Source: Heterodontus francisci
Taxonomy: Eukaryota
Direction of reading: 5' to 3'
DNA length: 64,000 nucleotides
Assembly (NCBI RefSeq): GCF_036365525.1
Contig: NC_090386.1
Span: 40,161,360 to 40,225,359 of the forward strand
Shown piece after piece: positions 2,070 to 39,705 of the stretch; the first letter of the stretch is position 1; every line of letters begins with the position of its first letter. The translations under genes and the position numbers were made by a program. The notes under the pieces were generated by a model. That model saw nothing but the letters and a program-made list of their open reading frames with translations. It was not told the origin of the DNA and made no database searches.

Positions 2070-2335
2070 AGGCTGAATTTTACCAGCCCCTCGACGTTGG
2101 GGGTCATGGCAGAGGGGCCTGTAAAATACTTGCAGAAGTGGCCCGCCACGGTCCCCAACACCACGAAGGCCCCACCGCTTAATACCAGCAGCGGCGAGGC
2201 CTCAGTGAGGCCCCCCTTGCCGCTAAGTGGTGGGGCCTTCATTTCCCTACTAAGATTCATGCAAATAGGTGTTAATGAAGTTACCCGGACCAGGCGGCCG
2301 TCCCACGACGATATTACAGGCACCAGCCACAACTC
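2070..2335. mobile_element. Truncated PIF/Harbinger-type MITE (left part only)
   Basis: Begins AGGCTGAATTTT and is colinear with the first ~260 bp of the copy at 6375; no right TIR seen. Confidence 0.65.
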
Positions 2336-2355: not shown

Positions 2356-3700
2356 TTATTGCAACAGTACTTCTTTAAATACAGGATTTCTAATTATTAT
2401 TTCATCAAAAACATTAACATAATTAACATTTCTCATTTTGGAAAAAGCTACATAAAGCTGTCTGTGTAAAAACAGGCCGAGGAATATAAATACAAATTTT
2501 GTCATACATCTGACCTTCTGACTTGTTAATAGTCATAGAAAATGAAAGTCTAATTGGGAACTGAGTTGAAAAGGCAGGTTTACACCTGATAGGCTCAATA
2601 TTATTCAAGGAATAAACACTCTAATTTCCTTGAAAGTTGCCTGTTATGATTTCAATATCTATCATCAAAGAAAACAGGTTCCTAAACCAATCTTGTTCCA
2701 TGGCAAAGTCCTTGTTTAGGATTCAAGTTTCATAACAATATTATAACTGTTCCTTCCTTGAATCTAAGTTTGTGTGATGGCATGCTCACTGGAGTTAGAC
2801 TGTGTAGAAACTCTAAAGGGTGTAGGCTGCTACTATCTTCGTCTATAGAATCAATGCTGATGTATTGGCCTAGATTTTGTGCAGGAGGCATGGCTCCTCG
2901 CACCAGGCCGAAAAGGTAGGGGATAGCCCGCCTCAACCTTTTCGTGTCCGCCCCAGCACGATCCTCTGTTGTTCCGGAGGCAAAGTCTCTGCCACTGGGA
3001 TCCCCCATCCCTTTAAAGATGGGGATCCCACCTCCGAGAGCTGCTGGCCAATCACAGAGCCGACAGCTCAGCTGAATCAGCAGCGTCATTGGAAGCGGTG
3101 GCCGCTATCAGTACTGCAGAGGCCTTGGACCCAGGCCCAGCGCTGGAACCCGGGACCTCAGGTAAATGAGGAAGGCCCTGACGAGGTGGGGTGGGGGTGT
3201 TCACAAAGTCCAGGGGGAGTGGGGTCCTCGAGGTGCATTGTTTCTTGGCCGGGGTCCTTTGTGGGTCATCTTTGGCCCATGGAGGAGAGACCACCCCCCC
3301 TCCTGCCAAGCCCGTAGGGAGGGCACCTCGTTTATGGTGGAAGCCCCCACGCCAACCACTGGAGAAATCCCAGCGGCAGATGAAAGAGGCCATTAGTGGC
3401 CGTTGATAGGCCACTTAAGGTCCTCAATTGGCCTCTGGGCAGGAAGGCCGTCAGCGGCCTACCCTGACCCCAGGAATATCGCTTGGCGACAGGGAGGCAA
3501 CGGGCTCCCCGCTCTCCCCACTTCCGCCACTTGTCACGATTCTGTGGGCCCCCTTGCCTCCGAACCTGCCTTGGGGCGGGGGGGCCCATAAAATCCAGCT
3601 GATTCTTTTAATGGTCCTAACAGCTTTTCGGAAACTTTCTCATTCAAACCTAGCGAATCTTCATTTTTAGCACGAAGAATTGCTTTCAAATAATAATTTG
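2356..3700 (-). pseudogene. Decayed Helitron Rep/Hel PIF1-type helicase C-terminus, interrupted by a MITE
   Basis: Minus-strand pieces KAILRAKNEDSLGLNEKV..LLGPLKE|YISIDS..PLEFLHSLTPVSMPSHKLRFKEGTVIILL*NLNPKQGLCHGTRL..QFPIRLSFSMTINKSEGQ..IYIPRPVF..RNPVFKEVLLQ*; hallmark Helitron helicase motifs with stops and frameshifts. Confidence 0.88.
2867..3601. mobile_element. PIF/Harbinger-type MITE
   Basis: Ends GGCCTAGATTTT / AAAATCCAGCTG, 3-bp TSD ATT (2864-2866, 3602-3604); removing it restores the helicase reading frame. Confidence 0.85.
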
Positions 3701-4559
3701 TATCAAATAATTGCCCCTGCCAATTCCATCATCTCATCCACCCCTCCCATGCCACCCTCCCTTGCCATACCCTCCCTCCCATACCTTCCCTATCCTATGC
3801 CATTCCATCCTTCCCATGCCATCCCCATCCTGGTCTTGTCATCCCCATTCCTCCCATCAATCCCATCCCATCCCTCAAACATTGGCAGCCGTACATGTAT
3901 TACATGCTCGCATTCTCCATGTGCTCCATTTGCCTCCACATGCGCCAGGCACTGCCCATCAAATAAACCTACCAACGGATGTGGCCCTTAAACTGACCAA
4001 ACAAAATAGTCTGGACAGACAAAAAACAGATGATTTTGTCTCTAATTTTTTTGGAAATTGTTTCTATCAGTGAGTGTTGATGGGAACAATCATTGAGACA
4101 GTACAAGATGGCTGAATTAACAACAGCGCATTTTCTCAATCACCTGGTGTCTGCTGTCATCCTAGAAACTGCACCTTTTAATTCTAATTGTGTGTTAACT
4201 CACACCATAGGGCCTAGTTGTCCCCTCTAGTTCATGTGATGAAGTCATCAATTTGAAATATAAATCAGCTTAAATCACCCAAATACTGAGCACAATGTGG
4301 AATCGAATCTCTTTGACCTTATAATTGCTATGAAGTACTCCATTTATGAAGCACATTTGATTTATGAAATTATTTACATGGAGTTGAAATGAATCTTAAA
4401 TGTTTCATTGTTTTTGGTAGGCTTAATTTAAAAGTGACATATGTGGTGACCTCAAGCAAAACTATGTGAAACTGGTGAAAAATGATTTACAAATTCATCC
4501 TAACCCCCGATTTTTCTTCATCATGACCAATAGGCAATCATAACCAAGAAGCACTAAAG

Positions 4560-5040
4560 ATGATTAAAAAGATTTACAAGAGTGATACCAAAACTGCAAG
4601 GTTATAACTATCAGGATAGACTGAACAGACTGAGAATTATTTCTGTAGAAAAAAGAAGGCTGAGGGGTGACCTAAAAGAGGTGTTTAAAATTATGAAGGA
4701 GTTTGATAGGGTAGTTGTGGAGATGTTTCCACTTGTGGGGGAGACCAAAACTAGGAACCATAAATATAATATTGTCACTAATAAATCTAATAAAGAATTC
4801 AGGAGAAACTTCTTTAACCCAGCAAATGGTTAGAATGTGGAACTTGCATCACATGTAGTAGTTGAGACAATAGCATAGATACATTTAAGGGAAGCACTTG
4901 AGGGAGAAAGGAATAGAAAGGACACACATGGTAGATTAGATGAAATAGGGTGGGAAAAGGCTGCTGTGGAACATAAGCACAAACATAGGCCAGTAGGACT
5001 GAAAAGTCTATTTCTGTGCTGTAAATTCTATGTAATAGCA
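4560..5040 (+). mobile_element. CR1 LINE 3' fragment
   Basis: RRLRGDLKEVFKIMKEFDRV..RRNFF, typical CR1 ORF2 C-terminus, followed by 3'UTR ending ATTCTATG. Confidence 0.85.
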
Positions 5041-6269
5041 TAAATAAGGCAGATAACTAACAGCTTGAAAATAAATTGTTCTAGTTGTGGTTCAGCAGAG
5101 AGATTAAACTGGCACATCTCAGCCAGTGGTGTAAACAGAACAGATTACATAAACAGAAAACACTCAGTAGATTCTTAGTGGGAGTCCTGCAGTGAAATGT
5201 CCTCATTAACTAAATATATGGTTTCCATCTTCCAGTTTGTTGTTTGCTGCCTTGCTAACAAGCCCATTACATTTAAATAAATGTTGCTAATGCTTTCTTG
5301 TACCAATTCCTATTGAAACACTTGAGCATCCATTCAGCTGTGGAACTTTCAGCTTCAGCATAAAACAGATAATATATCAGATGGAAGTCAAAAAGAAAGT
5401 TTGATAAGGTATATAACAGACAACTGATCTAAGATTTCCACATCAAAATTAGACCCAGTGATTCAAATGCCCATCATCTTAAATGGGTTAACCCCTCCAT
5501 TAAAATAGCAGACAGCACACTGTTGTACTAAAAGTGTTACTCATTCATACACTAATAGTGCAAACAATATTTTGGTTCTTGTGCTTTTTAGCACATGGAT
5601 TAGGCAGTCGTCAAACTGCAAGACACACCTTGAAATCTACTCTTGTGTTGTACTGGTATCACTGCTCATGATATCTGGTTTTTCACCATCAGCGACAACA
5701 CCAAAGGTAACTTCGTCAGTGTCGCGAATCTCGACCCCCAGGAAGGCTGGTATCTTTAATGGTGCCACTGGTTGTGTAATATTTGATTGATCTTGGTTTT
5801 ATTGTATTAGTCTGCTCATTGATCAGTGTTCACTGTATTTAATTGCTTAAGCCTATGGGTGGAGCTTAAGAGTTTGAAACTGAAACTAAAAAAAAGACAG
5901 ACTAGAATGTTCTACAGATAACACAGACTGTTCTGAAGAAGACATTGTTAATGCTGAGATATTGTAAGTTCTGTAAAGAAAGCAGTTGTTGTTTTAATAC
6001 AAGTGTGATCTCTGCATTGCTCTGAGATAAATCAGACATATCCAATATATCCAGCAACCCGGCGTAAACATAGCAGGTTGCTTCTCAGGAACTGACAGCA
6101 TGACCACAGATGACCAAAGATAACTACCTTTCTGCCTTCCAATTTATCAACCATTCACTGATTCTAATCCAGAGAGAAAACCATGCCTGAGAGGCAAACA
6201 TTGGTGAGGCACACCAATCTGACAGTGATTCGGGCAATGGTTTGTCAACGATCTACTCTTGATAATTTA

Positions 6270-7205
6270 ATAAAACCAAAATACTATGGATGCTGGAAAT
6301 CTGAAATAAAACAGAAAGTGCTGGAAATACTCAGCAGGTCTGGCATCATCTGTGGAGGGAGAAACAGAGTTAATAGGCTGAATTTTAGCAGCCCCTCAAC
6401 GCCGTGGGTCGTGGCATAGGGGCCGGTATAATTCTGCGGGAAGAGGCCATCTTGTCCCGCGACATCGAGAAGGGCCCGCCGCATATTACTGGAGGCGGGG
6501 GGACCTCGGTGCGGCCACCCCCCGCTGCCTGGCGGCGGGCCCGTCATCTCCATATGTAAATTAGCATTAATGATATTCACAATTTACTTACCTGCAAGTG
6601 GCAGCCGTCCCACGCCGATTTTATGGCCTCTGCATGGCCTTTGTGCGCCTTCGGAACTCCGCATGGAGTTCCAAGGTGAGACTCTGGTGGGGAGGGGGGG
6701 AGGAATAAAATTTTCAGGGCAGGAGGGGTGGAGGAGCAGGGAAAACAATTTTGATTGGACGTGGGGATGATGGGAAGGGGTTGAAGGGAAAAGATAAGGT
6801 TGCGGGGGAAAGTTCGGGTAATGAGAAATCAATTGTTGGTCATTTCAGGCAATTAAATGACCATTGAGGGGAGGTTGGGGAAGGCCCTCCATCACTTAAT
6901 TTTGTATTTAATAAATGTCCTTTTAAAAATTAATTGTAAGGGCTTAAAGCCCTTTAAAGATGGCACTGGCGCCTGCGCGGTGGCACCGGATGCTGTTGCC
7001 AGGGACGCGGTGGCTGCCCCTACATGTCATTGAGTGTGGCTGCTCCGCCCCACTATTTAAATGAGCTCCCGCGCAAAATATCACGGGCTCCTCGGCGGCT
7101 CTTCCCTGTCGGAAGGTTGCCAAGTTGAAAGCCCGCCACCGAGGAATGCGGCACGCAATTAAAATTCAGCCCAATGTTTCAAGTCTGTGACTTTTCATCA
7201 GAACA
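6270..7205 (-). mobile_element. Penelope-like terminal repeat (pLTR) with hammerhead motif, split by a MITE
   Basis: Same repeat as the 3' end of the GIY-YIG element at 26063-27190; minus strand reads GTT-CTGATGA-A-AAGTC-ACA-GACTT-GAAA-CATT up to the MITE junction. Confidence 0.8.
6375..7172. mobile_element. PIF/Harbinger-type MITE
   Basis: TIRs AGGCTGAATTTT / AAAATTCAGCCC; TSD AAT at 6372-6374 and 7173-7175. Confidence 0.88.
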
Positions 7206-7811
7206 TTGATAATTTTATGCTGTTTTGTGTGCTGAAAAATATGAATTATCCAATAATTTGAATTGGGCAACTTAAGTAACACAGCAAAGTGGGAAGTTAC
7301 TGTTTAAGATAATTATTTATTGGACAATTTATATTAAGTAATTTTCAATTCAGAAGCTTGGGTTGTCATGAAATGCAAGGGTGGTTTAACTTAGTCTTAC
7401 TTTCACACCGGACTGTGAAAAGCTAAATGTAACTCAGAGTTTGAGAGCCCAACTGTCTAATTTACAAAATGGACATGCTATTCAGACATATTGGTACACA
7501 GAAGTAAACCACAAATTCAGCAACTGTTCAATTGTTCAGCAGTGAAATTAGGAAACACCTTTTAAAAAAAAACAGTAGTGGAAATTTGGAACTCCCTCCT
7601 TCAAATGGCTGAGGATGCTGGGTCAGTTGAAATCTTAAGACTGAGATTGACAAATTTCTTTTAGGTAAGGGTATGAATGGACCTGAGGCAAAGACATGTA
7701 AAGGGAGCTGAGGTACAGAGCAGATGTGATCTAATTGACTGGCAGAGCAGGCTCGAGAGGTTGAATAGCCAATGTTCCTATGTGTTTATGTCCTGAGAAC
7801 AGTTCTTCAAT

Positions 7812-8922
7812 TTCGGAAATAAAAACAGAAAATGCTGGAAATACTCAACAGGTCTGCCAGCATCAGGTGGGAGCGGAACAGAGTTGACGTTTCAGGTCGA
7901 TGCCCTTTTATCAGAACTGCTTAAGAAAGATCTGAAGGAGCGTTGCCATGAGTTTTTGAAGCTTGCGATCCTTCACACCTAAAAGGAAGAATAAAAGTTT
8001 CTGTTAAAGTGGTGGATGAGACAAAGGATGAAATGAAATTGCAGACCAGGACAACTTTGAGGTAGAGTGAGTCAGTGCTGCTGAAGAGAGAGGTGGAAAG
8101 TATGCATGTGGTGGAGCATGGTGTTGAGTGTGGATCTCAGGATGTGGCAAGAACAGCCATTCAAGGAATGCTGAATGTCTAGGCGATATCTGTAATCATG
8201 GGTGGATCCGAAACACGAAGAGTTAAATTTCAGTTGGAATCCATGTGGAATAAGTTGGAGCCAGAGTCAGTAGCTGAGGAAGGAGACGTTGCTGTGAAAG
8301 TGAGTTTTGGTAGAAACCTGATCTAACACAAGAAGGAAAATAGAAAGCAATGAAGGTGAGCGAGGTGAAAGAGACACTGAGAGCTCCAGTTGGAGAGGAG
8401 AGCAGAACTTCTTCAAGGTGGGTATTCCTGGAAGAGAAGTGGCAGTGAATTAAACACTAATACAAAAGCAAAATACTACAGATGCTGGAAATCTGAAATA
8501 AAAACAGAAAATGCTGGAAATACTCATTAGGTCAGGCAGCATCTGTGGAGAGAGAAATTGAGTTTGCATTTCAGGTTGATGATGGCATATGCTGCCACAT
8601 GCACACTCTCAACCTCTGTCTTCAGCAGCACCGACTCACTTTGTCTTAAACCTGTCCTGGTCCACAGTTTGATCCTTCATCTCATCCGAAGCTTTAACAA
8701 AAAACTTTTTTCTTCCTTCAAGTGTGAAGGATTGCAAGCTTCAAAAACTCATGGTCAGCAAAGACTCTCCAGATCTTTCTTGGCAATTCTGATGAAAGTT
8801 CATCGACCTGAAATGTTAACCCTGTTTCTCTCTCCACAGATGCTGGCAGAGCTACTGAGTATTTCCAGCATTTTCTGCTTTTATTTCAGATTCCCAGCAT
8901 CCTCAGTATTTTGCTTTCATTT
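7812..8922. mobile_element. Internally deleted Penelope-like derivative with direct and inverted pLTRs
   Basis: Minus-strand pLTRs at ~7812-7918 and ~8460-8575 flank a decayed ORF-like segment; ~8585-8900 is an inverted copy of ~7812-8120 with a + strand CTGATGA..GAAA motif at 8789-8813. Confidence 0.75.
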
Positions 8923-9517
8923 CAGCCTGGTGGGGGTGGAAATGCCTCCATTTAGTTTCGCTGATCGCATGGAACCCAAGTGAAATGATTTTTGAAACAG
9001 TTTATATCCAGTCCCATGGTCTATAACTGCCAATAACTAGGGATATATTGATACAAGAATCTCCAAGAAGATTTATCGAGATTTTAAGGATGGCTACTGT
9101 TGAAATAGCAAACTTCAGACTGATACGTGATTGGATGGGGATTTTCTGAGGTTGATGTTAATCTATACTGTTGAAGCAAAAAAAAGAGCTTTAGTCTGCA
9201 TACATATTCACTTCACTTATCCCCTGGTCTTTTTAAATCCTTACCAGTCTCCACGATTGTCTCACCACACTGCTGCTTCATGGCTGTTTATTTTGATTAT
9301 TCACTTCTATTTGCAATTTTGCCAAGTCTGTCCATGTTACTCTTTCTTCAATGTTTCCCTTTTTCTGAGTCTACGTGTCTATATTTGTCCTTGACATCAC
9401 CAAATTGGCCCAAGTCCCACTGAAAACATTGACCTTCATTGTCTACATATAGTGTTTGAAATCTGCTGCACCAGAATAACTAATATATCAAGGGGATACT
9501 TAACCACTAGATTAAAC

Positions 9518-10250
9518 ACACCAGAATGTGGAGAATCCACACCAGAACATGGAGAACTTACACCAGAACATGGAGAACTTACACCAGAACATGGAGAACT
9601 TACACCAGAACATGGAGAACCAAACCAGAACACGGAGAACTTACACCAGAACATGGAGAACCCACACCAGAATATGGAGAACCAAACCAGAACATGGAGA
9701 ACTTACACCAGAACATGGAGAACTTACACCAGAACATGGAGAACCAAACCAGAACACGGAGAACTTACACCAGAATATGGAAAACTTACACCAGAACATG
9801 GAGAACCCACACCAGAATATGGAGAACCAAACCAGAACATGGAGAACTTACACCAGAACATGGAGAACTTACACCAGAACATGGAGAACCCACACCAGAA
9901 CATGGAGAACCCAACCAGAACACGGAGAACCCACACCAGAACATGGAGAACCCACACCAGAATATGGAGAACCAAACCAGAACATGGAGAACGTACACCA
10001 GACCATGGAGAACTTACACCAGAACATGGAGAACCCACACCAGAATATGGAGAACCAAACCAGAACATGGAAAACTTACACCAGAACATGGAGAACTTAC
10101 ACCAGAACATGGAGAACCCACACCAGAATATGGAAACCACACCAGAACACGGAGAACTTACACCAGCACATGGAGAACTTACACCAGCACATGGAGAACC
10201 CACACCAGAACATGGAGAACCCACACCAGAATATGGGGAATGTGCACCAG
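9518..10250. repeat. Minisatellite, ~35 units of 21/20 bp (ACACCAGAACATGGAGAACTT and variants)
   Basis: Directly visible tandem array; the long ORFs here arise because the unit has no stop codon in any + frame. Confidence 0.97.
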
Positions 10251-13172: not shown

Positions 13173-14282
13173 GTACAATACTTCTTAAATGGTTTCTATT
13201 GTGAAATAAGGGCTGTGTGTTGGTATAACTGTCCAGGAGATACATGCAATAAACGTGGCCTTCCCTACATCCTGGGAACAAATAAGAAAAGACTGTTAAT
13301 TCATATGTGCCAAATTACACTGAGAGTGAGCTTCACGGTTGAACAGTTTTGTTTAAACGGTTTTGAACAATTATATTAATAAACTTTAGTCCTTTATATT
13401 TGATTCCTCATATTTAAGAGTTTATTTTTAATGTCGTTGAGGTAAATAATGGCAACATGGGAAATAGAACATTTTTCTTCCAGCTTTAAGCATCCTGTGA
13501 TGGTATGAATTACATCCAAGATCAACAGTATCGTGCCCAGATGTAGTGTTAAATTCTGTCTACTCTGCCACAGTACCATACCCCAAATGCAAACTCAGAA
13601 GAGGGTTCCCTACCATATATGTCTGAAGCTTTTCTTTTCCCAACACCAGGCATCCTTCAAATCTCTATAATTTGAGATTTTCAATTTGAACAGAATTATG
13701 AACAGTTTTGAGTTAAGTATGGTGCTTGCAGGGAGTTAGGTTAAGTTTGCTTCAGATTATTTCACTTAGTACCCTTGCGACCAACAGCAAAAGGAGATTT
13801 ACATCCCACTAGTCTCTACTGGCTTCAAATCAAGGCCATTGGAAGAAAAGGCAGTGCACCAACCAAGTAAAACCCTTATCTAAGAAGTATCCCCTGGGCC
13901 TAACAGTGTGAGGGTGTTTGAATAACATCAATAGACACTGTTATTAAGTCAAGCTATTTCTGTAATGTTGGCAGTTGTTGATATAATGTTGTTAGCTGTT
14001 GTAACATTGTCAGCTGCTTGGCACTATTGTGCACAGTAAATCCTCTAAATCAGTTTCCTCAAGACATCCCACACAGGATTGATTCACATATACTATTTAT
14101 ATTGGACATTTGAGACATGTTGAATTGGCTTGAGTGTTATATAGTATTATTATCTATACACAGCTCAGGAAGGTGACTGATCCTTGTGTCTGCCTCACAT
14201 TTGTGGTCTACAGGCACAAATTACAGTAATTGTGCAGATGTTTGAAGGATGGCTAACCTTCTTGAGACTTTCTTAATTTCAG

Positions 14283-14401
14283 CTGATGCTGTCTTCCTCG
14301 ATGATGAGAATCAACGCAGGGAATATGTACTGAATGATCAGGGCTTGATCTATCGGGGTACGAAGAAATTCATTTCACAAATTGCTTGGAATTTTGGGCA
14401 G
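14283..14401 (+). CDS. TGM2: Transglutaminase 2-like, exon 4 equivalent
   Basis: Acceptor taatttcag|CT, donor GGGCAG|gtactg; 119 nt; (A)[39 protein letters not shown]; phase continues from the previous exon. Confidence 0.94.
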
Positions 14402-17623: not shown

Positions 17624-20600
17624 ATTTTTTTTTACTCATTTATGTGATGTGGGCGTCGCTGGCCAGGCCAGCATTTATTGCCCATCCCTAATTGCCCTTG
17701 AGAAGGTGGTGGTGAGCTGCCTTCTTGAACTGCTGCAGTCCATGTGAGGTAGGTACACCCACAGCGTTGTAAGGAAGGGAGTTCCAGGATTTTGACCCAG
17801 CGACAGTGAAGGAACGGCGATATAGTTCCAAGTCAGGATGGTGTGTGACTTGGAGGGGAACTTGCAGGTGGTGGTGTTCCTCTGCATTTGCTGCCCTTGT
17901 CCTTTCAGTTGGTAGAGGAAGTGGGTTTGGAAGGTGCTGTCTAAGGAGCCATGGTGCATTGCTGCAGTGCATCCTGTAGACGGTACACACTGCTGCCACT
18001 GGGCGTTGGTGATGGAGGGAGTGAATGTTTGTGGATGGGGTGTCAATCAAGGGGGCTGCTTTGTCCTGGGTGGTGTCGAGCTTCTTGAGTGTTGTTGGAG
18101 CTGCACCCATCCAGGCAAGTGGAGAGTATTCCATCACACTCCTGACTTGTGCCTTGTAGATGGTGGACAGGCTTTGGGGTGTCAGGAGATGAGTTACTCG
18201 CCTCAGGATTCCTAGCCTCTGAACTGCTCTTGTAGCCATGGTATTTTTGGCTACTCCAGTTCAGTTTCTGGTCAATGGTAACCCCTAGGATGTTGATAGC
18301 GGGGGATTCAGCAATGGTAATGCCATTGAATGTCAAGGGGAGATGGTTAGATTCTCTCTTGTTGGAGATGGTCATTGCCTGGCACTTGTGTGGAACGCAT
18401 GTTACTTGCCACTTATCAGTCCAAGCCTGGATATTGTCCAGGTCTTGCTGCATTTCTACACGGACTGCTTCAGTATCTGAGGAGTTGCAAATGGTGCTGA
18501 ATATGGTGCAATCATCAGCAAACATCCCCACTTCTGACCTTAAGATTGAAGGAAGGTCATTGATGAAGCAGCTGAAGATGGTTGGGCCTAGGACACTACC
18601 CTGAGGAACTCCTGCAGTGATGTCCTGGAGCTCAGATGATTGACCTCCAATAACCAAAGACTTGCGGGTTGATAGGTAAATTGGCCATTGTAAAAATTGC
18701 CCCTAGTGTAGGTGGGTGGTAGGAGAATTGAGGGAAGGTGGGGATGTGAGAGGGAAAATGGGATTAATGTAGGATTAGTATAAATGGGTGATTGATGGTC
18801 GGCATGGATTCGGTGGGCCGAATGGCCTGTTTCGGTGCTGTATCACTCTATGACTTTTTGAACCACAACCATCTTCTTTTGCATTTATGACTCCAACCAG
18901 CGGAGGATTTTCCCCCTTATTCCCATTGACTTCAGTTTTGCTAGGGCTCCTTGATGCCATACTCGGTCAAATGCTGCCTTGATGTCAAGGGCAGTCACTC
19001 TCACCTCACCTCTTGAGGTCAGCTCTTCTGTCTATGTTTGAACCAAGGCTATAATGAGGTCAGGAGCTAAGTGGCCCTGGCGGAACCCAAACTGAGCGTC
19101 ACTGAGCAGGTTATTGCTAAGCAAGTACTGCTTGATGGCACTGTCGATGACACCTTCCATCACTTTACTGATGATTGAGAGTAGACGGATGGGGCGGTAA
19201 TTGGTCGGGTTGGACTTGTCCTGCTTTTTGTGTACAGGACATACCTGGGCAATTTTCCACATTGCAGATAGATGCCAGTGTTGTTGCTGTGGGGCGCGGC
19301 AAAATCTGGAGCACAGGTCTTCAGTACTATTGCCAGAATATTGTCAGGGCCCAGAGCCTTTGCAGTATCCAGTGCCTTCAGTCGTTTCTTGATATCACGT
19401 GGAGTGAATCAAAGTGGCAGAAGTCTGGTATCTGTGATGCTGGGGACTTCAGGAGGAGGCCGAGATGGATCATCAACTCGGCACTTCTGGCTGAAGATTG
19501 TTGCAAATGCTTCTGCCTTATCGTTCGCACTGATGTGCCAGGCTCCTCCATCATTGAGGATGGGGATGCTTGTGAAGCCACCTCCTCCAGTTAGTTGTTT
19601 AATTGTCCACCACCATTCACTGTTGGATGTGGCAGGACTGCAGAGCTTAGATCTGATCTGTTGGTTATGAGATTGCTTAGCTCTGTCTATCGCATGCTGC
19701 TTACGCAGTTTTGCATGCAAGTAGTCCTGTCTTGTAGCTTCACCAGGTTGACACCTCATTTTGAGGTATGCCTGGTGCTGCTCCTGGCATGCCCTCCTGC
19801 ACTCTTCATTAAACCAAGGTTGGTCTCCTGGCTTGATGGTAATGGTAGAGTGGGGGATATGCCGGGCCATGAAGTCATAGATTGTTGTTGAGTACAATTC
19901 TGCTGCTGCTGATGGCCCACAGCGCCTCATGGATTCCCAGTTTTGTATTGCTGGATCTGTTCGAAATCTATCCCATTTAGCACAGTGATAATGCCACACA
20001 ACACAATGGATGGTAACCTCAATGTGGAGGTGGGACGCCGTCTCCACAAGGATTGTGCGGTGGTCACTCCTACCAATGTTGTCATGGACAGTTGCATTTG
20101 CGGCAGGCAGATTGGTGAGGACGAGGTCAAGTATGTTTTTCCCTCTTGTTGGTTCCCTCACCACCTTCCGCAGACCCAGTCTAGCAGCTATGACCTTCAG
20201 GACTCGGCCAGCTCGGTCAGTAGTGGAGCTACCGAGCCACTCTTGCTGATGGACATTGAGGTCCCCCACCCAGAGTACATTCTGCGCCCTTGCCACCCTC
20301 AGTGCTTTCTCCAAGCAGTGTTTAACATGGAGGAGTACTGACTCATCAGCTCAGTCAGGGCGGTAGGTGGTAATCAGCAGGAGGGTTCCTTGCCCATGTT
20401 TGACCTGATGCCATGAGACTTTATGGGGTCCTGAGTTGATGTTGAGGACTCACAGGGCCACTCCCTCCTGACTGTATGCCACTGTGCTGCCATCTCTGGT
20501 GGGTCTGTCCTGCCGGTGGGACAGGACATACCCAGGGATAGTGATGGCAGTGTCTGGGACATTGTCTGTAAGGTATGATTCCGTGGGTATGACTGTGTCA

Positions 20601-22477: not shown

Positions 22478-23543
22478 TTTAGAGATACAGCTCTGAAAGA
22501 GGCCCTTCGGCCCACCGAGTCTGTGCCGACCATCAACCACCCATTTATACTTTTCTTCTTTTTTTTTTTTCTTTTGGGCCTCCTTATCTCGAGAGACAAT
22601 GGATACGCGCCTGGAGGTGGTCAGTGGTTTGTGAAGCAGCGCCTGGAGTGGCTATAAAGGCCAATTCTGGAGTGACAGGCTCTTCCACAGGTGCTGCAGA
22701 GAAATTTGTTTGTTGGGGCTGTTGCACAGTTGGCTCTCCCCTTGCGCCTCTGTCTTTTTTCCTGCCAACTACTAAGTCTCTTCGACTCGCCACAATTTAG
22801 CCCTGTCTTTATGGCTGCCCGCCAGCTCTGGCGAATGCTGGCAACTGACTCCCACGACTTGTGATCAATGTCACACGATTTCATGTCGCGTTTGCAGACG
22901 TCTTTATAACGGAGACATGGACGGCCGGTGGGTCTGATACCAGTGGCGAGCTCGCTGTACAATGTGTCTTTGGGGATCCTGCCATCTTCCATGCGGCTCA
23001 CATGGCCAAGCCATCTCAAGCGCCGCTGACTCAGTAGTGTGTATAAGCTGGGGATGTTGGCCGCTTCAAGGACTTCTGTGTTGGAGATATAGTCCTGCCA
23101 CCTGATGCCAAGTATTCTCCGAAGGCAGCGAAGATGGAATGAATTGAGACGTCGCTCTTGGCTGGCATACGTTGTCCAGGCCTCGCTGCCGTAGAGCAAG
23201 GTACTGAGGACACAGGCCTGATACACTCGGACTTTTGTGTTCCGTGTCAGTGCGCCATTTTCCCATCAACCACCCATTTATACTAATCCTATATTAATCC
23301 CATATTCCCTACCACATCCCCACAATTCTCCTAGTACCTACCTACACTAGGGGCAATTTACAATGGCCAATTTACCTATCAATCTGCAAGTCTTTGGCTG
23401 TGGGAGGAAACCAGAGCACCCAGCAGAAACCCACGCGGTCACAGGGAGAACTTGAAAACTCCACACAGGCAGTACCCAGAACCAAACCCGGGTCGCTGGG
23501 GCTGTGAGGCTGTGGTGCTAACCACTGCACCACTGTGCCGCCC
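22478..23543 (-). mobile_element. HE1-like tRNA SINE, interrupted by an RTE fragment
   Basis: Minus-strand head GGGCGGCACAGTGGTGCAGTGGTTAGCAC at the 23543 end, CR1-like tail at the 22478 end; homologous to 39372-39705. Confidence 0.88.
22552..23262 (-). mobile_element. 5'-truncated RTE-clade LINE with uninterrupted ORF C-terminus
   Basis: ORF 22621-23226: LLYGSEAW..RCLRRILGIRWQD..RRLRWLGHVSRM..GRP..CSTCGRACHSRIGLYSHSRRC; A-rich tail; 22-bp TSD CCATCAACCACCCATTTATACT at 22530-22551 and 23263-23284. Confidence 0.93.
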
Positions 23544-25349: not shown

Positions 25350-26040
25350 TTACGAAAGTACTTCCATTTTTTGTTAAATTTTGAGGACTTGTGTTTTGTT
25401 TGGGAAAACTGAAAAGGATTCCATGGATTTTTTTTTCACTGGGGTTATTGAAAGGACTGAGAGGTCTTGTTTGTGAACAACATGTACTGGAAGTCACCTA
25501 TCTTCAGAAAAATAAAAGCTGGGGTGTTTTGCCTTGGAGGAGATGTTTACAGAGAAGTGACAGGTCAAGATTTATAGGGGTCAGGAGGCTTGACTCTTGA
25601 GACATTGTTTTAGTTTCATTTTTGGGGTATGAACAATGTTTTGAGTGGGAGTTTTAAAAAAAAAGCCCAACTCAGCCTGTTCTATCTCTTTGAAAAGCCT
25701 GCCAGTTTTTCCATTTCTTTGAGAAGCTCTTAGAAGCAACTGTAAGAAATAGAGAAATTGGTGCTACATTCTTCCTGAAAGGCCTGCTTGAAACCCCTGT
25801 TGCCGCATTTCTCCTGAGACACTGGAAAAACCTGCCGTCTGAATAAATTGCTCCAGAGAAAGATCCCAGTGGCAGCTGTCTACGTGTATTTAGGACACGA
25901 AACCAAAAAAGGGACAACTGACATCTTTCCATATCTTTTTTTTTGCAAGAATTAGCAAGTATTTGACCAAAGTATTTATTTTTTTGTCTTTTTTTATAAC
26001 AGAGCTCTAAAAGCAAATCTCTTTTTTTCTGATTGACCGG
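25350..26040. mobile_element. LTR-like insertion inside CR1
   Basis: Non-coding block interrupting the CR1 endonuclease, starts TATTACGA (TG..-like terminus decayed), loosely similar in layout to 46140-46951; no TSD confirmed. Confidence 0.4.
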
Positions 26041-26062
26041 TGTGTGTGTGTGTGTGTGTGTG

Positions 26063-27190
26063 ACCGTGTCCAGCCCATTTCCCGCACCTCTACCCTCACC
26101 CCTTCCCCTCCCTCCCAGAACCGTGACAGGGTTCCCCTTGTCCTCACTTTCCACCCCATCAGCCTCCATATCCAAAGGATCATCCTCCGCCATTTCTGCC
26201 ACCTCCAGTGTGATGCCACTACCAAACACATCTTCCCCTCCCTTTCCCTGTCAGCATTCCGAAGGGATCATTCCCTCTGCGACACCCTGGTCCACTCCTC
26301 CATTACCCCCACCACCTCGTCCTCTTCCCACGGCACCTTCCCCTGCAATCGCAGGAGGTGTAAGACCTGCCCATTTACCTCCTCTCTCCTCGCTATCCCA
26401 GGCCCCAAACACTCCTTTCAGGTGAAGCAGCGATTTACTTGTACTTCTTTCAATGTAGTATACTGTATTCGCTGCTCGCAATGTGGTCTCCTCTACATTG
26501 GAGAGAGCAAACGCAGACTGGGTAACCAGAACACCTCCGCTCAGTCCGCAAGCAGGACCCTGAGCTTCCAGTTGCTTGCCATTTCAACATTCCCCCCTGC
26601 TCTCATCTCTGTCCTGGGATTGCTGCAATGTTCCAGTGAACATCAACGCAAGCTCGAGGAACAGCATCTCATTTACCGATTAGGCACATTACAGCCTGCC
26701 GGACTGAACATTGAGTTCAGTCATTTCAGAGCATGACAGGCCCCCCATTTTACTTTTATTTTTTTATTTAGTTATTTTTTTATTTTTTTATTTTTTACAT
26801 TTTTTACAACTTTTTTTTCATGTTTATTTCATTTCATCTTAGTTTGTTCAGTTTGCTTACCCACTGTTTTTTCATGTTTGGACTTGCTGCTGTTCAACCT
26901 TCAGTCCGTTAATACCCTATTTGTACTAATGCTTTGTCTTTCAATGCACCATTAACATATTGTTTGCCTCTGCTCCATGACCTTTTGGTCAGCTATGTGG
27001 CCTTGTCCAATCTACACCTTCTCCTTTGTTATCTCTTGCCCCACCTCTGCCTCACTTGCTTATAACCTTTGGCATTTCTAATATTTGCTAGTTCCGAAGA
27101 AGGGTCACTGACCCGAAACGTTAACTCTGCTTCTCTTTCCACAGATGCTGCCAGACCTGCTGAGTGGTTCCAGCATTTCTTGTTTTTATT
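26063..27190 (+). mobile_element. 5'-truncated Penelope-like element: Cys-rich linker, GIY-YIG endonuclease and 3' terminal repeat
   Basis: FPCNRRRCKTC..FTCTSFNVVYCIRCSQCGLLYIGESKRRL..RKLEEQHLIYRLGTLQPAGLN, stop at 26736; Cys-rich linker suggests the Neptune group; 5' end abuts a (TG)n tract. Confidence 0.92.
27090..27126 (+). ncRNA. Minimal type I hammerhead ribozyme motif in the Penelope terminal repeat
   Basis: AGTT-CCGAAGA-A-GGGTC-ACT-GACCC-GAAA-C-GTT-AACT: stem I AGTT/AACT, core variant of CUGANGA, 5-bp stem II, GAAA, loopless ACGT helix III, GUU triplet. Activity not shown. Confidence 0.72.
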
Positions 27191-29705
27191 ACAATAGAGA
27201 AGCATGTCGCATGGGTAATACAGTAATCATAGATGATTTCAATCTGCACATAGACTGGATAAACCTAATGAGCACTAATGCTGTGGAGGATGAGTGTCTG
27301 GAGTGTGTTAGGGGTGGTTTTCTGGAGCAGTATGTTGTGAAACCGACAAGAGAACAAGCTATTTTAGATCTAGTATTAGGTAATGAGAAAGGGTTAATTA
27401 ATAATCTTGTTGTAACAGAACCTTTAGGGATGAGTGACCATAATTTGATAGAATTTTACATTATGTTTGAAAGTGATATAGTTCAATCTGAAGCCAGGGT
27501 TTTAAATTTCGACAAAAGAAATTATAAAGGTATGAGGGGCAAATTGACTGAGGTGAATTGGGAAAATACATTAAAAGGTATGAGAATACATTCACAATGA
27601 ATAGTCTTAAAAGAATTATTACATAGTTTACAGCAACTATACATTCCTTCAAGGCACAAAAACCCAAAGAGAAAAGTCAGCCAACTGTGGCTAACAAAAG
27701 AAGTTAAGGATTGTATAAGATTAAAAGAAAAGGCCAAAAAGTTGCCAGAAATAGTAGTTAACCTAGGATTGGGAGGATCTTAGAATACAGCAAAGGAGGA
27801 CCAAGAAACTGAGAAAGAAAGGGAGAATAGAATATGAATGCAAAGTAGCAAAAAAAAAGGGACTGTAAAATCTTCTATAGGTCCATAAAAAGGAAATGTT
27901 TGGCTAAAACAAATGTGGGTTCATTACAAGAGTCAGGAGAATTTATAATGGGGAATAGAGAAATGGCAGAGAAGCTAAATGATTACTTTGTGTCTGTCTT
28001 TACTGAGGAAGATGCAAGAAATCTCCCAGAATTAGAGATCCAAGAAACTAGGAAGAATGAGGCATTGAAGGAACTTAGTATGAGTAAGATGGTTGTATTG
28101 AAGACATTAATGGGGCTGAAGGTTGATAAATTCCCAGGACCTGATATTCTACACCCAAAGTGTTGAAAGAGGTAGCTATGGGGATAGTGGATGCATTGGT
28201 GATCATCTTCCAAAATTCTATAGATTCCAGAATGGTTTCTGCAGATTGGAAGGTAGCAAATGCCACCCCACTATTTAAGAAGGGAGGGAGAGAGAAAACA
28301 GGGAACTACAGACCTGTTAGCCTTACATCAGTAGCAGGGAAAATGTTAGAATCTATTCTGAAGGATGTGATAAATGGACACTTGGATAATATAATGATGT
28401 GATTAGGCATGGACAACATGGATTAGTGAATGGGATGGATTATACTGGCATGGATTAAGGATTGGTTAACAGGCAGAAACAGTAGGAATAAACGGGTCAT
28501 TCTCACATTGGCAGGCTGTAACTAGTGGGGTACCGCAAGGGTCAGTACATGGGCTGTACTATAGTATATAGTATATCAGTATTATAATATGGAAAAATGT
28601 GAGGTTATCCACTTTGGTAGGAAGAATAAATGTGCAGAGTATTTCTGAAATGGTAAGAGATTAGAAAGTGTAGATGTACAAAGGGACCTGGGTGTCCTCG
28701 TCAATAAGTCACTGAAAGCTAACAGGCAGGTGAAGCAAGCAATTAGGAAGACTAATGGTATGTTGGTCTTTATCACAAGAGGATTTAAGTACGGGAGTAG
28801 CAAAGTCTTGCTTCAATTGTGTAGAACTTTGGTTAGACTGCACTTGGAGTACTGTGTGCAGTTTTGGTCTCCTTACCTTAGGAAGAATATTATTGCCATA
28901 GAGGGAGAGGAACGAAGGTTCACCAGACGTGTTCCTGGGATGCCGGGACTGTCCTGTGAAGAGAGATTGTGGAAAATGGGCCTGTATTCTCCAGAGTTTC
29001 GAAGAATGAGAGGTGATCTCATTGAAACCAACAAAATACTTAAAGGAACAGACAGGGTAGATGCAGGTCAGATGTTTCCCCTATTTGGGGAGTCTAGGAC
29101 CAGAGGACACAATTTCAAAATAAGGGGGAAGCCACTTAGGACTGAGATGATGAGAAATTTCTTTACTCAGAGGGTTGTGAATCTTTGGATTTCTCTACCG
29201 TTGAGGCTGTGGAAGCTCAGTCATTGAGTATGTTTAAAGCAGAGATTGACAGATTTCTAAAAATCAATAACATAAATGGATATGGGGATAATGTGGGAAT
29301 ACGCCATTCAAGTGGATGATCAGACATGATTGTATGGAATGGTGGAACAGGCTTGATGGGCTGAATGGCCTACTCCTCCTCCTATATTCCTAAGGGACAA
29401 ACAGTTGACACGTGCAGAGATGGGAGCGGTATTTTACTGATTTATTTTTTTATGGAGTGTTGGGACCATATCCTGCTTGGCAACCTGACCCTGAGAGAAG
29501 CGGGTCTTCCGACTGACCTTTCAGGGGGCCAGCCAATTAAGAGGGTGCCTCCAGGATTGGTGTTTGATTAGGTGCAGTGGGAAGGAGGAACAGTCAGAAA
29601 CCTGAATGAGGGCTGAATATTTAAAGGGCAACCAGCAGCATGCACAATGACAGAATTGTACGTTGTAGACTGGAAATTTGTAGAAGCGAAAGGAGAAAAA
29701 AAAAG

Positions 29706-30214: not shown

Positions 30215-31015
30215 GGGCAGAATTTGTTCTGCCGTTAGAGGTGGGCATGGAGGTGGGGGGTGGCAAACAAAATGGCAGGGGGAGCCATTCCTGAGGTTGC
30301 CCGAGCCCCCTGCCATTTTGTCCGGTATGGAAGAGGCTGAGGATGGCCTTCCTGCCCCAGGTCAATTGAGGACCTTAAGTGGCTAATTAATGGCCACAAG
30401 GGCCTCTTCTCGACTCCACCTCAATTTAACGGAAGGCAGAGGGGGCCTGCTGCTGTATAGAGATGCTGCCAGGGAAAGCCCAGAAACCTCCTAGTGGGGT
30501 TGAGGGTGCCTCTCTCCTTTGGGAGAAATCCAGGGGCCCCAGTGGGCTTCCCGGCAGTGATTGCTGCCCCACTGTGATGACAGCCCCCCCCCCACCTTCA
30601 CCAACACTCCCGTCCCACCCTGTTGCCCAGACCTGCCTAAATGGCCCCACCGACCCAGACCTCACTGACCTCTCCGGGGTCTAGCCACTCTTCAGTACTA
30701 CAGGGTCTACTGCAGTACCGGCAGTGGCGACTGTGCCTGATGGTACTGCCGGCCTTCCGAGTGGATGGCAGCGCTGCAGGTGGAGCTTGCCCCTTAAAGG
30801 GACGGCTGGCAGTTAATTGGCTGCCCACCGTTAAATAGCTTCGGGGGTCCAATGGAGGGCCGAGATGGGGTCTTCGCCCATCGCCAGAATAAAATGAAGC
30901 TCATAATTTTTACCCATTTCCAGCCCCCACCACCATTCCCCCACCACCCCCCCCCACCACCCCCAACTCCACCTCCAGACCTGTCTCCAATGGCCTTGGA
31001 AAATATTCCCCCAGC
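30215..31015. mobile_element. PIF/Harbinger-type MITE
   Basis: Starts GGGCAGAATTT after GAAACATA; carries the family motif CAATTGAGGACCTTAAGTGGC; right end imprecise. Confidence 0.7.
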
Positions 31016-35210: not shown

Positions 35211-36371
35211 GCAGACTATGTAGTGCTCATTTGAGGCTTGGCCTCATTTCCTGGCTGCAAGAAGGATGATGACGGAGGCTGAGAGATCACTATTCCGTCT
35301 ATCACTCTGAGTGATCTGGAGAAGAAAATAGGATAAACTTGGTTAAAACAAATATTAATGGTTCTGAAAAATGAAGAGTAATATTTCTTTAAATAAATTA
35401 CCCACGAGAGGACACATTTTCACCATTAAAAGCATATGATATGATACTTTTTTTTTAAATGTAGCATATGCTTCTTTAATAAGAATGTGAAATTGGTCCA
35501 TTTGCTTTCCCTAGGTATTTGCAACTGTACAACTACAAAATAAAAGAAAAATCGTTAAATGTTCCCAAGAGTTATTAACTGTGGATATTTGTCATGCTTT
35601 GGCCAACTCGATCAAATTCAAATCCCCATGGCTGTCTCAGTTGCTTCAGTCGCTGTTTGACTTTGCAACTTCAGTCAGGCTGCTACAAACGTTTCACCTT
35701 AGAGTTCAAGAGATTCCATTTTGCAGAGCCTGAGGGGAAATGGTTGTGTCTGTCCCCCAGCTGCTGCTGGTCACTCGTGCTGTGCAGTTCAACATTGACC
35801 TTCTGCTGCTGCTTCCCACCAGCATGCTGCCTCTTTTCGGGAGGGGCGGGGGAGGAGTGCATGGGGAAGGTCATTGCAGACAAGATTTTCATGGGAATGC
35901 GAAACGCTGCTGGTTGAGCAACCACAAGATGTTGAGCTGAAGGACTCCTGCTAACTTCTGCTTTGCTGCAGGTAACTAAAAAAATGACAGATGTACGAGC
36001 AATTTGTGAGTAGGTAGTCATGGTTCTGCTGCTGCTGGACAGGCCTAAATGGTGGTACTTGTTACCCAATCTACTTGGCATAGATGAAAGCAAACTACTA
36101 AGATGGTATAGCAAATTCATGTGCCCTATCAGCTTTAACAATTATATGCATTGCACTCCTGCCCATTTTCATACCTGTGACAGGTCAGATTCAATGCCTG
36201 TGTGAATCCAAACAAAATAGCTTATGACATATAGTGGGGGAGGGTGGGAGGTGGGAGTTTTAACCCCTCCTCCCCACCACCTGTCAGACACCAGGCAGGC
36301 AAGTAGTTCAAATACCACGGATGACCCACCCCTCTGATTCCACTATCTTCCCGTGGGTCCTGATATTAACC

Positions 36372-37245
36372 TAAAATAAAAGCAAAATACTACAGATGCT
36401 GGAAATCTGAAATAAAAACAAGTTCTGGAAATACTCAGCAGGTCAGGCAGCACCTGTGGAGAGAGTAGTTGAGTGAATGGGCTGGATTTTAAGGAGCCCC
36501 CAACGTTGTGATCCGTGGCAGGGGGGCCTGAGGATGGCCCCAGATGAGGCCCACCACGGATCTCGACACCAACAGGGCCTGGCCTGCTATTATTGGCGGC
36601 AGCGAGGCCTCCGGCACTCAGTGACAGGACCATAATTTAAATATTTCAATAAATTAAAATACCTGAATTACTTACTCTCCTGTTGCCTCCTGATGTCCCA
36701 CCACGATCTTCACCCTGGCAGTCGTCCCTGTTGCCCTTCGGATCCCCGTCCAGGGAAACGAGGCACAACACTGGTGGAGAGGGGGGAGGAGGTAAGTTTT
36801 TTAGTGCAGGGGGTGGGGAATGGGGTCCAATTCATGCCATGGATGTAGGGGATGGTGGGAAGGGTTAGAGTTTAAAGTTGAGAGGGGGCAGGTCAGATGG
36901 TAAAGGTAAGTGTTTTTGGGGGGATGGCAAATTTAATTAATTTAATTGTTATGGGGGGGGGGGGGTGAGAGAGGGGCAAAAGAGATCAGTTTATTTAATT
37001 TAAATCAATCTTTCTTTAAATATTTAAATTTGCCAGTAGGGCTAACAGTCCTTTAAAAATGGTTTCAGCCACGTGATTGGAGGGGGTTGGGGCGGTGGCC
37101 TGCCCTGACTATTTAAATAAGCCGCTGTGATTGGAATTGTGGTGTCTGCTTGGCATGCGGCCCGCATGGGCGGGCTGCCATCTTTTTCACCAGCTTATAA
37201 AATTCAGCCCAACGTTTCAGCTCAGTGACCTTTCATCAGAACTGA
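36372..37245 (-). mobile_element. Penelope-like terminal repeat with hammerhead motif, split by a MITE
   Basis: Minus strand AGTT-CTGATGA-A-AGGTC-ACT-GAGCT-GAAA-CGTT ends at the MITE junction; the remainder continues at 36478-36372. Confidence 0.8.
36479..37210. mobile_element. PIF/Harbinger-type MITE
   Basis: TIRs GGGCTGGATTTT / AAAATTCAGCCC; flanks AAT (36476-36478) and AAC (37211-37213). Confidence 0.87.
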
Positions 37246-39371
37246 TATTAACCTACACTTTTGAGAAGGCACAAGGGCACCTCAGGCTGTGGGGTTCTCC
37301 CTTAAATGTGCCGATCATATTGCGATCACGTCATTGGGGCCTAACTGAAATTTTGACCTGAGGGCTACGTGGGGAATCTTTCCTGGCTTTGTCACTGCCT
37401 TAACCTGTCAAGAAGAGAAGCCAGAAAGGCAAGTTAAATTTTGATATGTATCTTTTAAATTTCCTTATAGGCCAGGAGGAGCAAGACACTGACTCCCTCT
37501 GACATCCTTCTGACATTCCTCTGACTCCCACAAAGACACTTGGGGCTGTTCTTATTTCAGATTTCCAGCATCTGCAGTATTTTGCTTCTGCAAACCTTGG
37601 ACTTCCCCTGTCCTATGCTTCCCTCCTCCCCTCTGACCACCTGACAACCACTTACCTTAGTGTCAGGAACTACTCTTTCAGGATGCTGTCAGAAGCTTCC
37701 TGCTGCTGGAAGTTATGCTTGCTCACTCCCACCCACCAGCCAGCTCATGCTTCCTGCTAGATTTGCACAGGAGACCGATGGTAAGCCTGCAGTTGGGGCC
37801 CGGGAGTTAAATATCCCTCAAGTCTCGCACTGCAAGTGCTGACTGGATTTCCATCTCCCTGAACCCACATCAATCCTGCTCGCCATTAAAATTGCCCCTA
37901 TATTTCTAGAATTGGCACCTCTGATCCAAGAGACTGGCGAAAGAGCTCCCAAAATGTGCTAAACAAGGCAGGTGAATTCAAATGCAATTCTGGGCTAGAA
38001 CAGGGACAAAGAATCCTCTCAGTTAACCATAGCCCTGGGTGGATCTCTGAAGTGAAATCTATCACGAAAGAGTAATGAGATTTAAGTATGTACCAGTAGG
38101 GCTGTTTCCTCTGGTTGTTATGTTTAGCAACGGTACAAACAAAGACAGGAAGATTTCATTGGGTTGGTATGAACTGTTCTTTTTGAACCAGAAATAAGGC
38201 CAAAGAATATATTCTTGCCTTTGTCCACAATGTCACCACACACAATGATGAGAATAAACATTCCCAATGCCAAGATACTCAGTACACAAGGAGTATTGTA
38301 ACATTGGCTTCACTATGTTAAAGAATGAGAACTGACTATTAACTAATTATTTTCTCCCTTATGATGACCTGATAAAGCCAAGGTGAAGCATGTGAAGGCT
38401 TTAATTTTGGATCATAATGTTGCCAGATCCAACAGTGCTGTGGCTGTGTTATGTTGCAAGGCTAGAGTTCAAGGTAATCAGTACGACTTTTTCATTAATA
38501 CTTTGCCCTCTCCTTCTGATGGTGGAGGCGTTTTACGTGGTTTAATTCTCCGGGTGACTAGCCCACCTGGTAGCTCATGCAAGTGGCCAATCTTCATGTG
38601 TGATCCTGAATAGCAGGTTATTTGGCATTTGGAGGCATCACAACCAAGTCTGGTGCAGTCCTTACCCTACTACACCAATGTTTCGGCAGGAGTTATTGGC
38701 TAACAATCAGGAGCAGGATTGATGTAGAGAATTTGGGAACTGGCTAGTGAGTTTGTTGAATAAGCAGAATTGTCATGCATCATAAAGTACTATAATTGCC
38801 ACTGGAGAAGAGCTTATTAAAAATGTTATCTTTAGCACCTTGGCACAGTGCAGAGAGAAAAATTGGCCGAAGAGAATAGCACATTCGTAATGAAGCACAC
38901 CTAATTTTCCTTCCCTCCCAACTTTCCTCTTTGCACAGCACCCAAGTGAAGCTGTATATTCAGGCACTGAAGATGAAAATCTATTGCATAAACTCTCACC
39001 TAGTTAATGGTGCAAGCATTTCTCGTTATTCAAAAATTTCACTGAGCCTGTTCCCCAAATCGATGATGCAGTCGCATCAGAAACAGGCTGAAATTCCACC
39101 CTTGTATTGTAGAAGTACTTATAGTCTTCTCAGGCGGTCACTCGGGAATGAGGATGACTTTCTTCCACTCCAGGGTTGTGGGTCCTTAGGTGACTGAACA
39201 GACCAATCCTAATATTCCAGGTCTGGAAGTTCATTTTGAGGGGTTGGAAGATGCCCGTGCGTGGGTTCTTTTAACATGGGGTGACCTTTGCACACTGACT
39301 ACCACATGGTCCAAGCGAAGCAAGGTCTTTGTCCGATGGCAGAGATGGCCAAGACGATTGGAGACCAGGTT

Positions 39372-39705
39372 CCGCACAGTGGCGCAGTGGTTAGCACTGC
39401 AGCCTCACAGCTCCAGGGACCCGGGTTCGATTCTGGGCACTGCCTGTGTGGAGTTTGCAAGTTCTCCCTGTGTCTGCGTGGGTTTTCTCCGGGTGCTCCG
39501 GTTTCCTCCCACAAGCCAAAAGACTTGCAGGTTGGTAGGTAAATTGGCCATTATAAATTGTCACTAGTGTAGGTAGGTGGTAGGGAAATATAGGGACAGA
39601 TGGGGATGTTTGGTAGGAATGTAGGATTAGTATAAATGGGTGGTTGATGTTCGGCACAGACTCGGTGGGCCGAAGGGCCTGTTTCAGTGCTGTATCTCTA
39701 ATCTA
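39372..39705 (+). mobile_element. Full-length HE1-like tRNA SINE
   Basis: A box TGGCGCAGTGG, B box GGTTCGATTC, CR1-like tail GGGCCGAAGGGCCTGTTTCAGTGCTGTATCTCTA; lies within an older, possibly RTE-related fragment (~39115-39840). Confidence 0.9.

Follow-up and report, generated by a model that had tools for sequence, protein, structure and literature searches.

All PIF/Harbinger members characterised so far are described, in the part of PMC2836001 used here, as having an insertion preference that reaches beyond the 3-bp TSD, with 9 bp given for plants. Extracts of two other sources give a palindromic target, AAACACCWGGTCTTT, for Harbinger3_DR (PMC3016246) and ANT TSDs with TIRs that start AG or GG for the Pangu group (PMC4482050). 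Dada DNA transposons target multicopy small RNA genes and are strictly target-specific, according to portions of PMC3706591 and PMC8869645. On the side of the RNA, the passages of PMC4209133 on which we drew describe a minimal hammerhead (minimal HHR) that lacks helix III, has a palindromic 15.2-16.2 and needs to dimerise for activity; in vitro, no self-cleavage could be detected for solo minimal motifs. Further context on the pLTR is found in parts of PMC11167929 and of bioRxiv 10.64898/2026.07.22.740005.

Here we describe two non-autonomous DNA elements that occupy the same base of a predicted minimal hammerhead in two copies of what we take to be a Penelope pLTR. Both lie in a 64-kb window, by which we mean the whole stretch of repeat-rich vertebrate DNA that was analysed. 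The traits of PIF/Harbinger found here are a 3-bp AT-rich TSD, short 12-bp TIRs starting G or A, and an extended palindromic preference. The inserts are like Harbinger3_DR, mPing/PIF and Pangu, as these are portrayed in the extracts of PMC3016246, PMC2836001 and PMC4482050, in their 3-bp TSD, their GG or AG TIR starts and a palindromic preference with outer A-runs; unlike in those systems, the preferred site is at the same time the core of a predicted ribozyme. Several TSDs are ANT, as in the Pangu extract (PMC4482050), but taken together they are mixed (AAT, ATT, AGT, ATA, AGA and AAC) and not strictly TWA (PIF/Harbinger), CWG (Nuwa, for which TNA also occurs) or ANT (Pangu). No autonomous partner, with a DDE transposase, a Myb-like ORF and the same TIRs, was seen by eye among the 50 window ORFs of at least 120 aa, and hence the superfamily of the inserts is assigned from TIR and TSD only.

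The portions of PMC3706591 and PMC8869645 on Dada offer a second comparison. What the two share is a DNA transposon at one invariant position within a structured-RNA sequence that is multicopy. Two differences from the strict Dada case are that the site here belongs to a fragment of a retroelement, and that 8 of the 10 same-TIR elements of the window are located away from it. We found no report of a DNA transposon splitting a hammerhead in open-access text, and the passages of PMC4209133 used here hold no mention of such splitting. The initial annotation had proposed either recurrent targeting of the ribozyme or amplification of an old composite, and knew of no description of either. The extended preference of the superfamily is in print, in the cited parts of PMC2836001 and PMC3016246; open-access text yielded nothing on its match to a hammerhead core.

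The host repeat and its two inserts

The host repeat, of ~140 bp, is present in the window in 11 copies. Ten of these span the insertion site, and two of the ten are split. Its identity comes from the 5'-truncated end of a Penelope-like ORF with a GIY-YIG-like motif (26011-26736, plus strand), downstream of which stands an intact pLTR with the minimal hammerhead (26989-27193, plus strand; 96% to the solo copy 59383-59587). The ORF carries the motif VVYCIRC...LYIGES and has 181 homologues. Among the 120 listed, at least 5 carry PF01541 and at least 20 carry PF26215, which we take to be GIY-YIG and a helix-turn-helix family, respectively; the named protein matches among them include at least four cartilaginous fish, on which ground we describe the window as shark-like. 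A direct Pfam scan of the ORF at 26011-26736 gave no matches. Because a copy of the repeat follows this truncated GIY-YIG-like ORF, we take the repeat to be a Penelope pLTR. Patterns of the host repeat had no matches in metagenome contigs or viral contigs.

On the ribozyme strand, the pLTR reads helix I, CUGAUGA, an extra A, helix II, GAAAC GUU and helix I again. The repeat thus holds the hammerhead core CUGANGA...GAAA-NUH with helices I and II and without helix III. The helices were paired in 88.6% of 70 cells in eight aligned rows, compared to 11-47% in slid controls. Two of nine pairs were changed on both sides, a covariation that is not significant (38 of 500 shuffles reach it). Free folding of the region was no better than that of shuffles (z of -0.3 to -1.8), and Rfam at gathering score gave no matches in the whole window. 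Our reading is based on the conserved core and helices, together with the description of minimal HHRs in the passages of PMC4209133 used here. Like the metazoan Penelope minimal HHRs of those passages, the host pLTR has a type-I core without helix III, an extra nucleotide after position 9 and a palindromic 15.2-16.2, occurs mostly as solo dispersed copies, and is located downstream of a GIY-YIG-like ORF. It differs from them at pair 10.1-11.1, which is A-U in five of eight rows and G-C in two, where the same passages call G-C highly conserved. The duplicated GUU would be the NUH triplet, and hence the predicted cleavage site.

Three long pLTR copies (27070-27095 and 57675-57700 on the plus strand, 59484-59505 on the minus strand) carry a branch-point-like CTAAY, a pyrimidine run and an AG directly 5' of helix I. 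Five short solo copies (7205, 37243, 7918, 8780 and 49582) start within a few bases of that AG, and mapped reads also break there (at 59486, with 2,346 reads in run X5 and 859 in run X6). The AG resembles the intron end of Drosophila virilis Penelope, which lies at the 5' end of helix I according to the passages of PMC4209133 used here. The short pLTR form may have arisen, SINE-like, by splicing or by truncation at the splice site. A young pLTR subfamily (59481 on the minus strand and 27093 on the plus strand; 99% over the core) has CCGAAGA instead of the CUGAUGA of the hammerhead core, and the basal pair of its helix II is G-C and not A-U.

Element 1 spans 6375-7172 (no strand assigned) and is 798 bp long with 12-bp TIRs. 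It has no long ORF, its longest stop-free stretch being 112 aa. Its TSD is AAT on the plus strand, at 6372-6374 on the left and 7173-7175 on the right; on the minus strand this reads AUU, the NUH triplet of the predicted hammerhead. The plus-strand junctions are GAGTT AAT followed by AGGCTGAATTTT (from 6375) and AAAATTCAGCCC (to 7172) followed by AAT GTTTC. The host copy, which is on the minus strand, is cut in two: 6269-6374, holding the 3' strand of helix I and the T-rich end, lies downstream of the predicted cleavage site, and 7173-7205 is the 5' part of the hammerhead, made up of the 5' strand of helix I, CUGAUGA, helix II and GAAAC-AUU. This host copy has a 10-bp TSD of its own, at 6259-6268 (plus strand) and 7206-7215.

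Element 2 (36479-37210, likewise without assigned strand) is 732 bp long, also with 12-bp TIRs, and is non-coding like element 1 (longest stop-free stretch, 71 aa). Its junctions are GAGTG AAT followed by GGGCTGGATTTT (from 36479) and AAAATTCAGCCC (to 37210) followed by AAC GTTTC. The two TSD copies differ, AAT at 36476-36478 (plus strand) on the left and AAC at 37211-37213 on the right; a later CpG decay, next to the G of the TIR, likely altered the left copy. The host copy, on the minus strand, is divided into the part downstream of the predicted cleavage site (36374-36478) and the hammerhead 5' part ending GAAAC-GUU (37211-37243), and is flanked by a 14-bp TSD at 36360-36373 (plus strand) and 37242-37255. 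Read on the minus, or ribozyme, strand, the two loci are GAAAC-ATT/element 1/ATT-AACT and GAAAC-GTT/element 2/ATT-CACT. In the eight intact host copies the empty site carries one triplet; in the intact solo copy at 59341-59587 (minus strand) it is the AAC at 59454-59456.

The global alignment of elements 1 and 2 scored 504 in the forward direction, 241.5 against the reverse complement and at most 276.5 in 30 shuffles. Hence, the two are in the same orientation. They are colinear, with 68% identity (472 of 690 aligned columns) and 42 gaps, and are therefore diverged members of one family, family A. The initial annotation had reported two MITEs at the same base of the same host repeat and in the same orientation, and its coordinates and junctions were borne out for both loci. 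The junctions likewise agree with its placement of the duplicated 3 bp directly after GAAAC, as the NUH triplet of the predicted minimal hammerhead. We conclude that the observation is real and non-random, and regard it as confirmed. Two details were adjusted. The left TIR of element 1 starts AGGC, not GGGC; and the two MITE bodies, noted as clearly diverged, are colinear homologues in one family and not unrelated.

Same-TIR elements and their target sites

Of ten same-TIR elements delimited in the window, eight lie outside the pLTR. Family A has three copies, at 2070, 6375 and 36479, the first of which is truncated (2070-2316, plus strand) and has its site outside the pLTR. A second family comprises six elements (2867, 30215, 39974, 41156, 52978 and 54496), and the element at 61399 is weakly linked to it. 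We built a target matrix from 14 ends of the eight non-pLTR elements. Thirteen of these ends come from families other than A, which share little with family A but the TIR. Element 41156-41809 was kept in the matrix in spite of its poor fit and lack of a TSD; ends 37898, 59942, 60635 and 1169 were left out as having another TIR type or no alignable relative. TIR-like matches at 18704, 23391 and 39523 were dropped as part of a SINE-like repeat (18660-18850, 23260-23540 and 39374-39700), the inner AGGGGCAATTT of which mimics the TIR and causes false ends in motif scans. The end at 37898 belongs to a GC-rich element (37290-37898) with a GGGGCAATTTT end, directly behind locus 2. This element holds a 45-bp piece of the pLTR 3' end (37546-37590), and its outer flank, GAAAT-ATA, equals the preferred motif described below; its left end was not found.

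The five bases before the TSD are, in the 14 non-pLTR ends, a purine in 12, A in 13, A in 9, A in 11 and a pyrimidine in 11. The eight elements thus give the palindromic preference RAAAY-NNN-RTTTY. RAAAY was matched at 56 of 70 positions, against a random mean of 25.7, and none of 20,000 draws was as high. This pattern was picked after the flanks had been seen, and the fair tests are the motif-free and the leave-one-out ones. The motif-free test gave 3.51 bits of information compared to 0.85 at random (0 of 5,000), with none further out than five bases. In the leave-one-out test, the top 0.4% of positions included four of the six complete sites; a fifth ranked at 3%, and the sixth, which has no TSD, at 75%. 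We rejected an extension of the motif to positions -8 to -6 (GC at -8 and -7 in 5 of 14 ends): it brought a loss and not a gain in the leave-one-out test, and was equalled by 727 of 5,000 random sets. Within the TSD, the 14 ends have A as the first letter in 8, and T in 8 or A in 6 as the last.

The very pentamer of the hammerhead core, GAAAC, stands directly before the TSD in non-pLTR DNA at 30215 and 52978, and GAAAT does so at 53709 and 62032. The elements concerned (no strand assigned) are 30215-30902, with TSD ATA on both sides and flanks GAAAC and ATTTT; 52978-53709, with AGA on both sides and flanks GAAAC and ATTTC; and 61399-62032, with AAT and TAT and flanks AAAAG and ATTTC. The earlier proposal that GAAAC matches the target preference of the transposon is supported by the fit of the non-pLTR ends to RAAAY. 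Its further wording, that the transposon "targets the ribozyme", is overstated, since most same-TIR elements, including the closest relative of element 1 (at 2070), lie outside the pLTR and mapped reads show no dominant break.

Explanations for the shared base

We consider it probable that two independent insertions took place, driven by an ordinary extended target preference, RAAAY-NNN-RTTTY, that the predicted hammerhead core happens to satisfy; the site is likely a motif-driven hot spot of PIF/Harbinger type in a high-copy repeat. Ribozyme selection would have fixed GAAAC in the master Penelope element, retrotransposition would have carried it into a very large number of dead pLTRs, and decay at CpG, from AACG to AATG, would have improved the target site further. 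A transposase, likely of the PIF/Harbinger (PHIS) kind, that prefers the palindrome would then find it supplied by the hammerhead core. In a minimal hammerhead the NUH triplet follows GAAAC directly, so a transposon with a 3-bp TSD that reads GAAAY would, by geometry, have to duplicate the cleavage triplet. The match to the cleavage site would be a geometric by-product. The inserts probably hit host copies that were already inactive: these are solo minimal motifs, and at locus 1 the palindrome had already been lost.

Could both loci instead descend from one old insertion, the resulting element-in-pLTR composite having been copied by the Penelope machinery or by duplication? Family, base and orientation are the same at both, and both hosts, each with its own TSD, are short-form copies; the split hosts also share two non-majority letters, one of them a CpG change that is present in three other copies too. 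However, the inserts are about twice as diverged as the hosts, which are 84% identical (116 of 138 columns) with 2 gaps as against the 42 in the inserts. This excess persists outside CpG, where the inserts are 70% identical (Fisher P = 0.0007), and in transversions (P = 0.016). Inserts more diverged than their hosts, which no insert can predate, must have come from different masters. Moreover, the split hosts form no supported clade among the ten hosts, and over its first ~250 bp element 1 shares 74% with the 2070 copy, which lies outside the pLTR, and only 67% with element 2. An amplified composite, one of the two alternatives first put forward, is therefore highly improbable. Segmental duplication of both loci, named at the same time as a possible refutation, fails as well: the host copies have separate TSDs of 10 bp and 14 bp, and no similarity was found between the flanks (2 kb on the left and 0.57 kb on the right of locus 1, against 2 kb on each side of locus 2).

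How well does the motif account for two independent insertions at one base? Uniform insertion would place at least 2 of 10 elements on the 10 host sites with P = 1e-6, and the expected number of element pairs at any shared homologous repeat position is 0.001. With the matrix, the insertion weight on the ten host sites is 1.0-1.7% compared to 0.017% under uniformity, an enrichment of ~60-100-fold. P for at least 2 of 10 is then 0.004 (5-base half-site) to 0.0125 (8-base) with the present-day sites, 0.017-0.025 if all ten are AAT and 0.0003-0.0005 if all are AAC; for any shared repeat position, the matrix predicts 0.010-0.013 events per window. The same orientation of both inserts has a chance of 1 in 2. 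Among window positions, the AAT form of the hammerhead site, which is that of the two hit sites, falls within the top 0.1-0.2% and the AAC form within the top 0.7-1.2%, and the site is the best one inside four of the eight intact host copies; of the left half-sites, GAGTT agrees with RAAAY at just 3 of 5 positions and GAGTG at just 2. Pure coincidence without any target preference would gain from the pair having been picked out of very many windows screened, so that rare coincidences surface. Nevertheless, it has to contend with both uniform values and with a flank motif that is demonstrably present, by which the absence of a preference is already refuted, and we find it the least credible of all the explanations.

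The matrix comes from 14 decayed ends and understates the sharpness of the preference. The residual P, the origin of 13 of these ends outside family A and the presence of two of the three family A copies at the pLTR base leave room for a sharper one; for family A alone, P is 0.0003-0.0009, calculated post hoc. Perhaps family A is specialised on the Penelope pLTR, with a longer recognition sequence that is near-unique in the hammerhead region and with dead copies as its main safe harbour? A residual P of 0.004-0.025 after the matrix would agree with this, as would the flank of the third copy, CCAGACAC, which has 6 of 8 letters in common with the host half-site, CCTGAAAC, and very long targets exist in the superfamily according to the part of PMC3016246 used here. 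However, that third copy, the nearest to element 1, lies outside the pLTR, and with two thirds of family A in hosts at window density ~20% of hosts would be split, while the loose ends listed for X5 and X6 are without the site (a weak bound). We therefore judge such specialisation unlikely. The same holds for the proposal that the family A lineage has converged on the Penelope hammerhead catalytic core, a sizeable genome-wide share of it splitting the ribozyme at the cleavage triplet, which we think doubtful to the same degree. A further possibility combines motif-driven insertion with selection that keeps the split copies, the insert silencing a harmful self-cleaving motif in host transcripts. 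The insert does remove the helix I 3' strand from the core, and the half-sites there pair by U-G wobbles or not at all. Yet solo minimal motifs are without detectable self-cleavage in vitro in the cited passages of PMC4209133, the palindrome at locus 1 is already lost on both TSD copies, and eight of the ten window hosts are unsplit and mostly decaying by point change. Such selection appears scarcely plausible.

As it stands, an ordinary preference has met an abundant repeat. Independent, motif-driven insertion would mean that the constancy which RNA catalysis imposes on the sequence of one mobile element offers a second element a DNA target that is already in place. Split pLTRs look like composites, a point of importance for annotating repeats in cartilaginous fish, and a target matrix is provided for an uncharacterised family with 3-bp TSDs. 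If family A did turn out to have this specialisation, a second kind of DNA transposon would be known to aim at a multicopy structured RNA, and the family would be a candidate for sequence-directed integration.

Mapped reads and genomic surroundings

Of eight runs listed, we mapped four, X1 and X3 (contigs from one sample) and X5 and X6 (capture and RAD libraries), on one intact pLTR copy, the solo copy at 59341-59587, at 80% likeness. The host repeat is very abundant: 61,447 of 11.99 million X5 reads and at least 74,753 X1 contigs map to this one copy. About half of the X5 reads carry letters of the older pLTR subfamily that includes the split copies; at 59481, likewise, about half carry each of the CCGAAGA-type and CUGAUGA-type forms. 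The insertion site, 59454-59457, is absent among the six loose ends listed for each run (1,288 entries lie beyond these listings), where the X1 and X3 counts are incomplete and uninformative on the site. In X5, the smaller "behind" entry listed has 2,346 reads at a depth of ~29,400 (8%); in X6, the smallest has 343 reads at a depth of ~3,600-4,600. Provided that the listing is ordered by count, breaks at a single coordinate affect fewer than ~8-10% of copies, and perhaps 16% over two coordinates, a weak bound because it applies per coordinate, to biased libraries and to the listed entries only. The reads exclude a dominant break. They are compatible with the 0.3-2.5% predicted by the matrix and, the bound being weak, do not speak firmly against the 20% of the window. 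Recurrence of the insertion beyond the two window copies is not shown by the mapped reads; depth falls smoothly across the site, and split copies can align on both sides of it, so that depth does not discriminate.

Elsewhere in the window, a tandem array of 20-21-bp units with higher-order spacing (9479-10245) gives rise to long open frames in several phases. A short exon-like frame with NPW-like context at 14246-14400 had no Pfam match above cut-off; it resembles a transglutaminase exon. Both insertion loci may lie in or near a gene.

At 59456, 43 X5 reads (35 starts) switch strand exactly at the AACGTT palindrome. This was not seen in the X1 and X3 contigs, and the reads could be either a fold-back artefact or real inverted junctions. 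Inverted pLTR pairs are present in the window at 49487-49726 and 8464-8921; at 49581/49582 the two copies abut head to head, joined at their hammerhead ends and enclosed by a short direct repeat.
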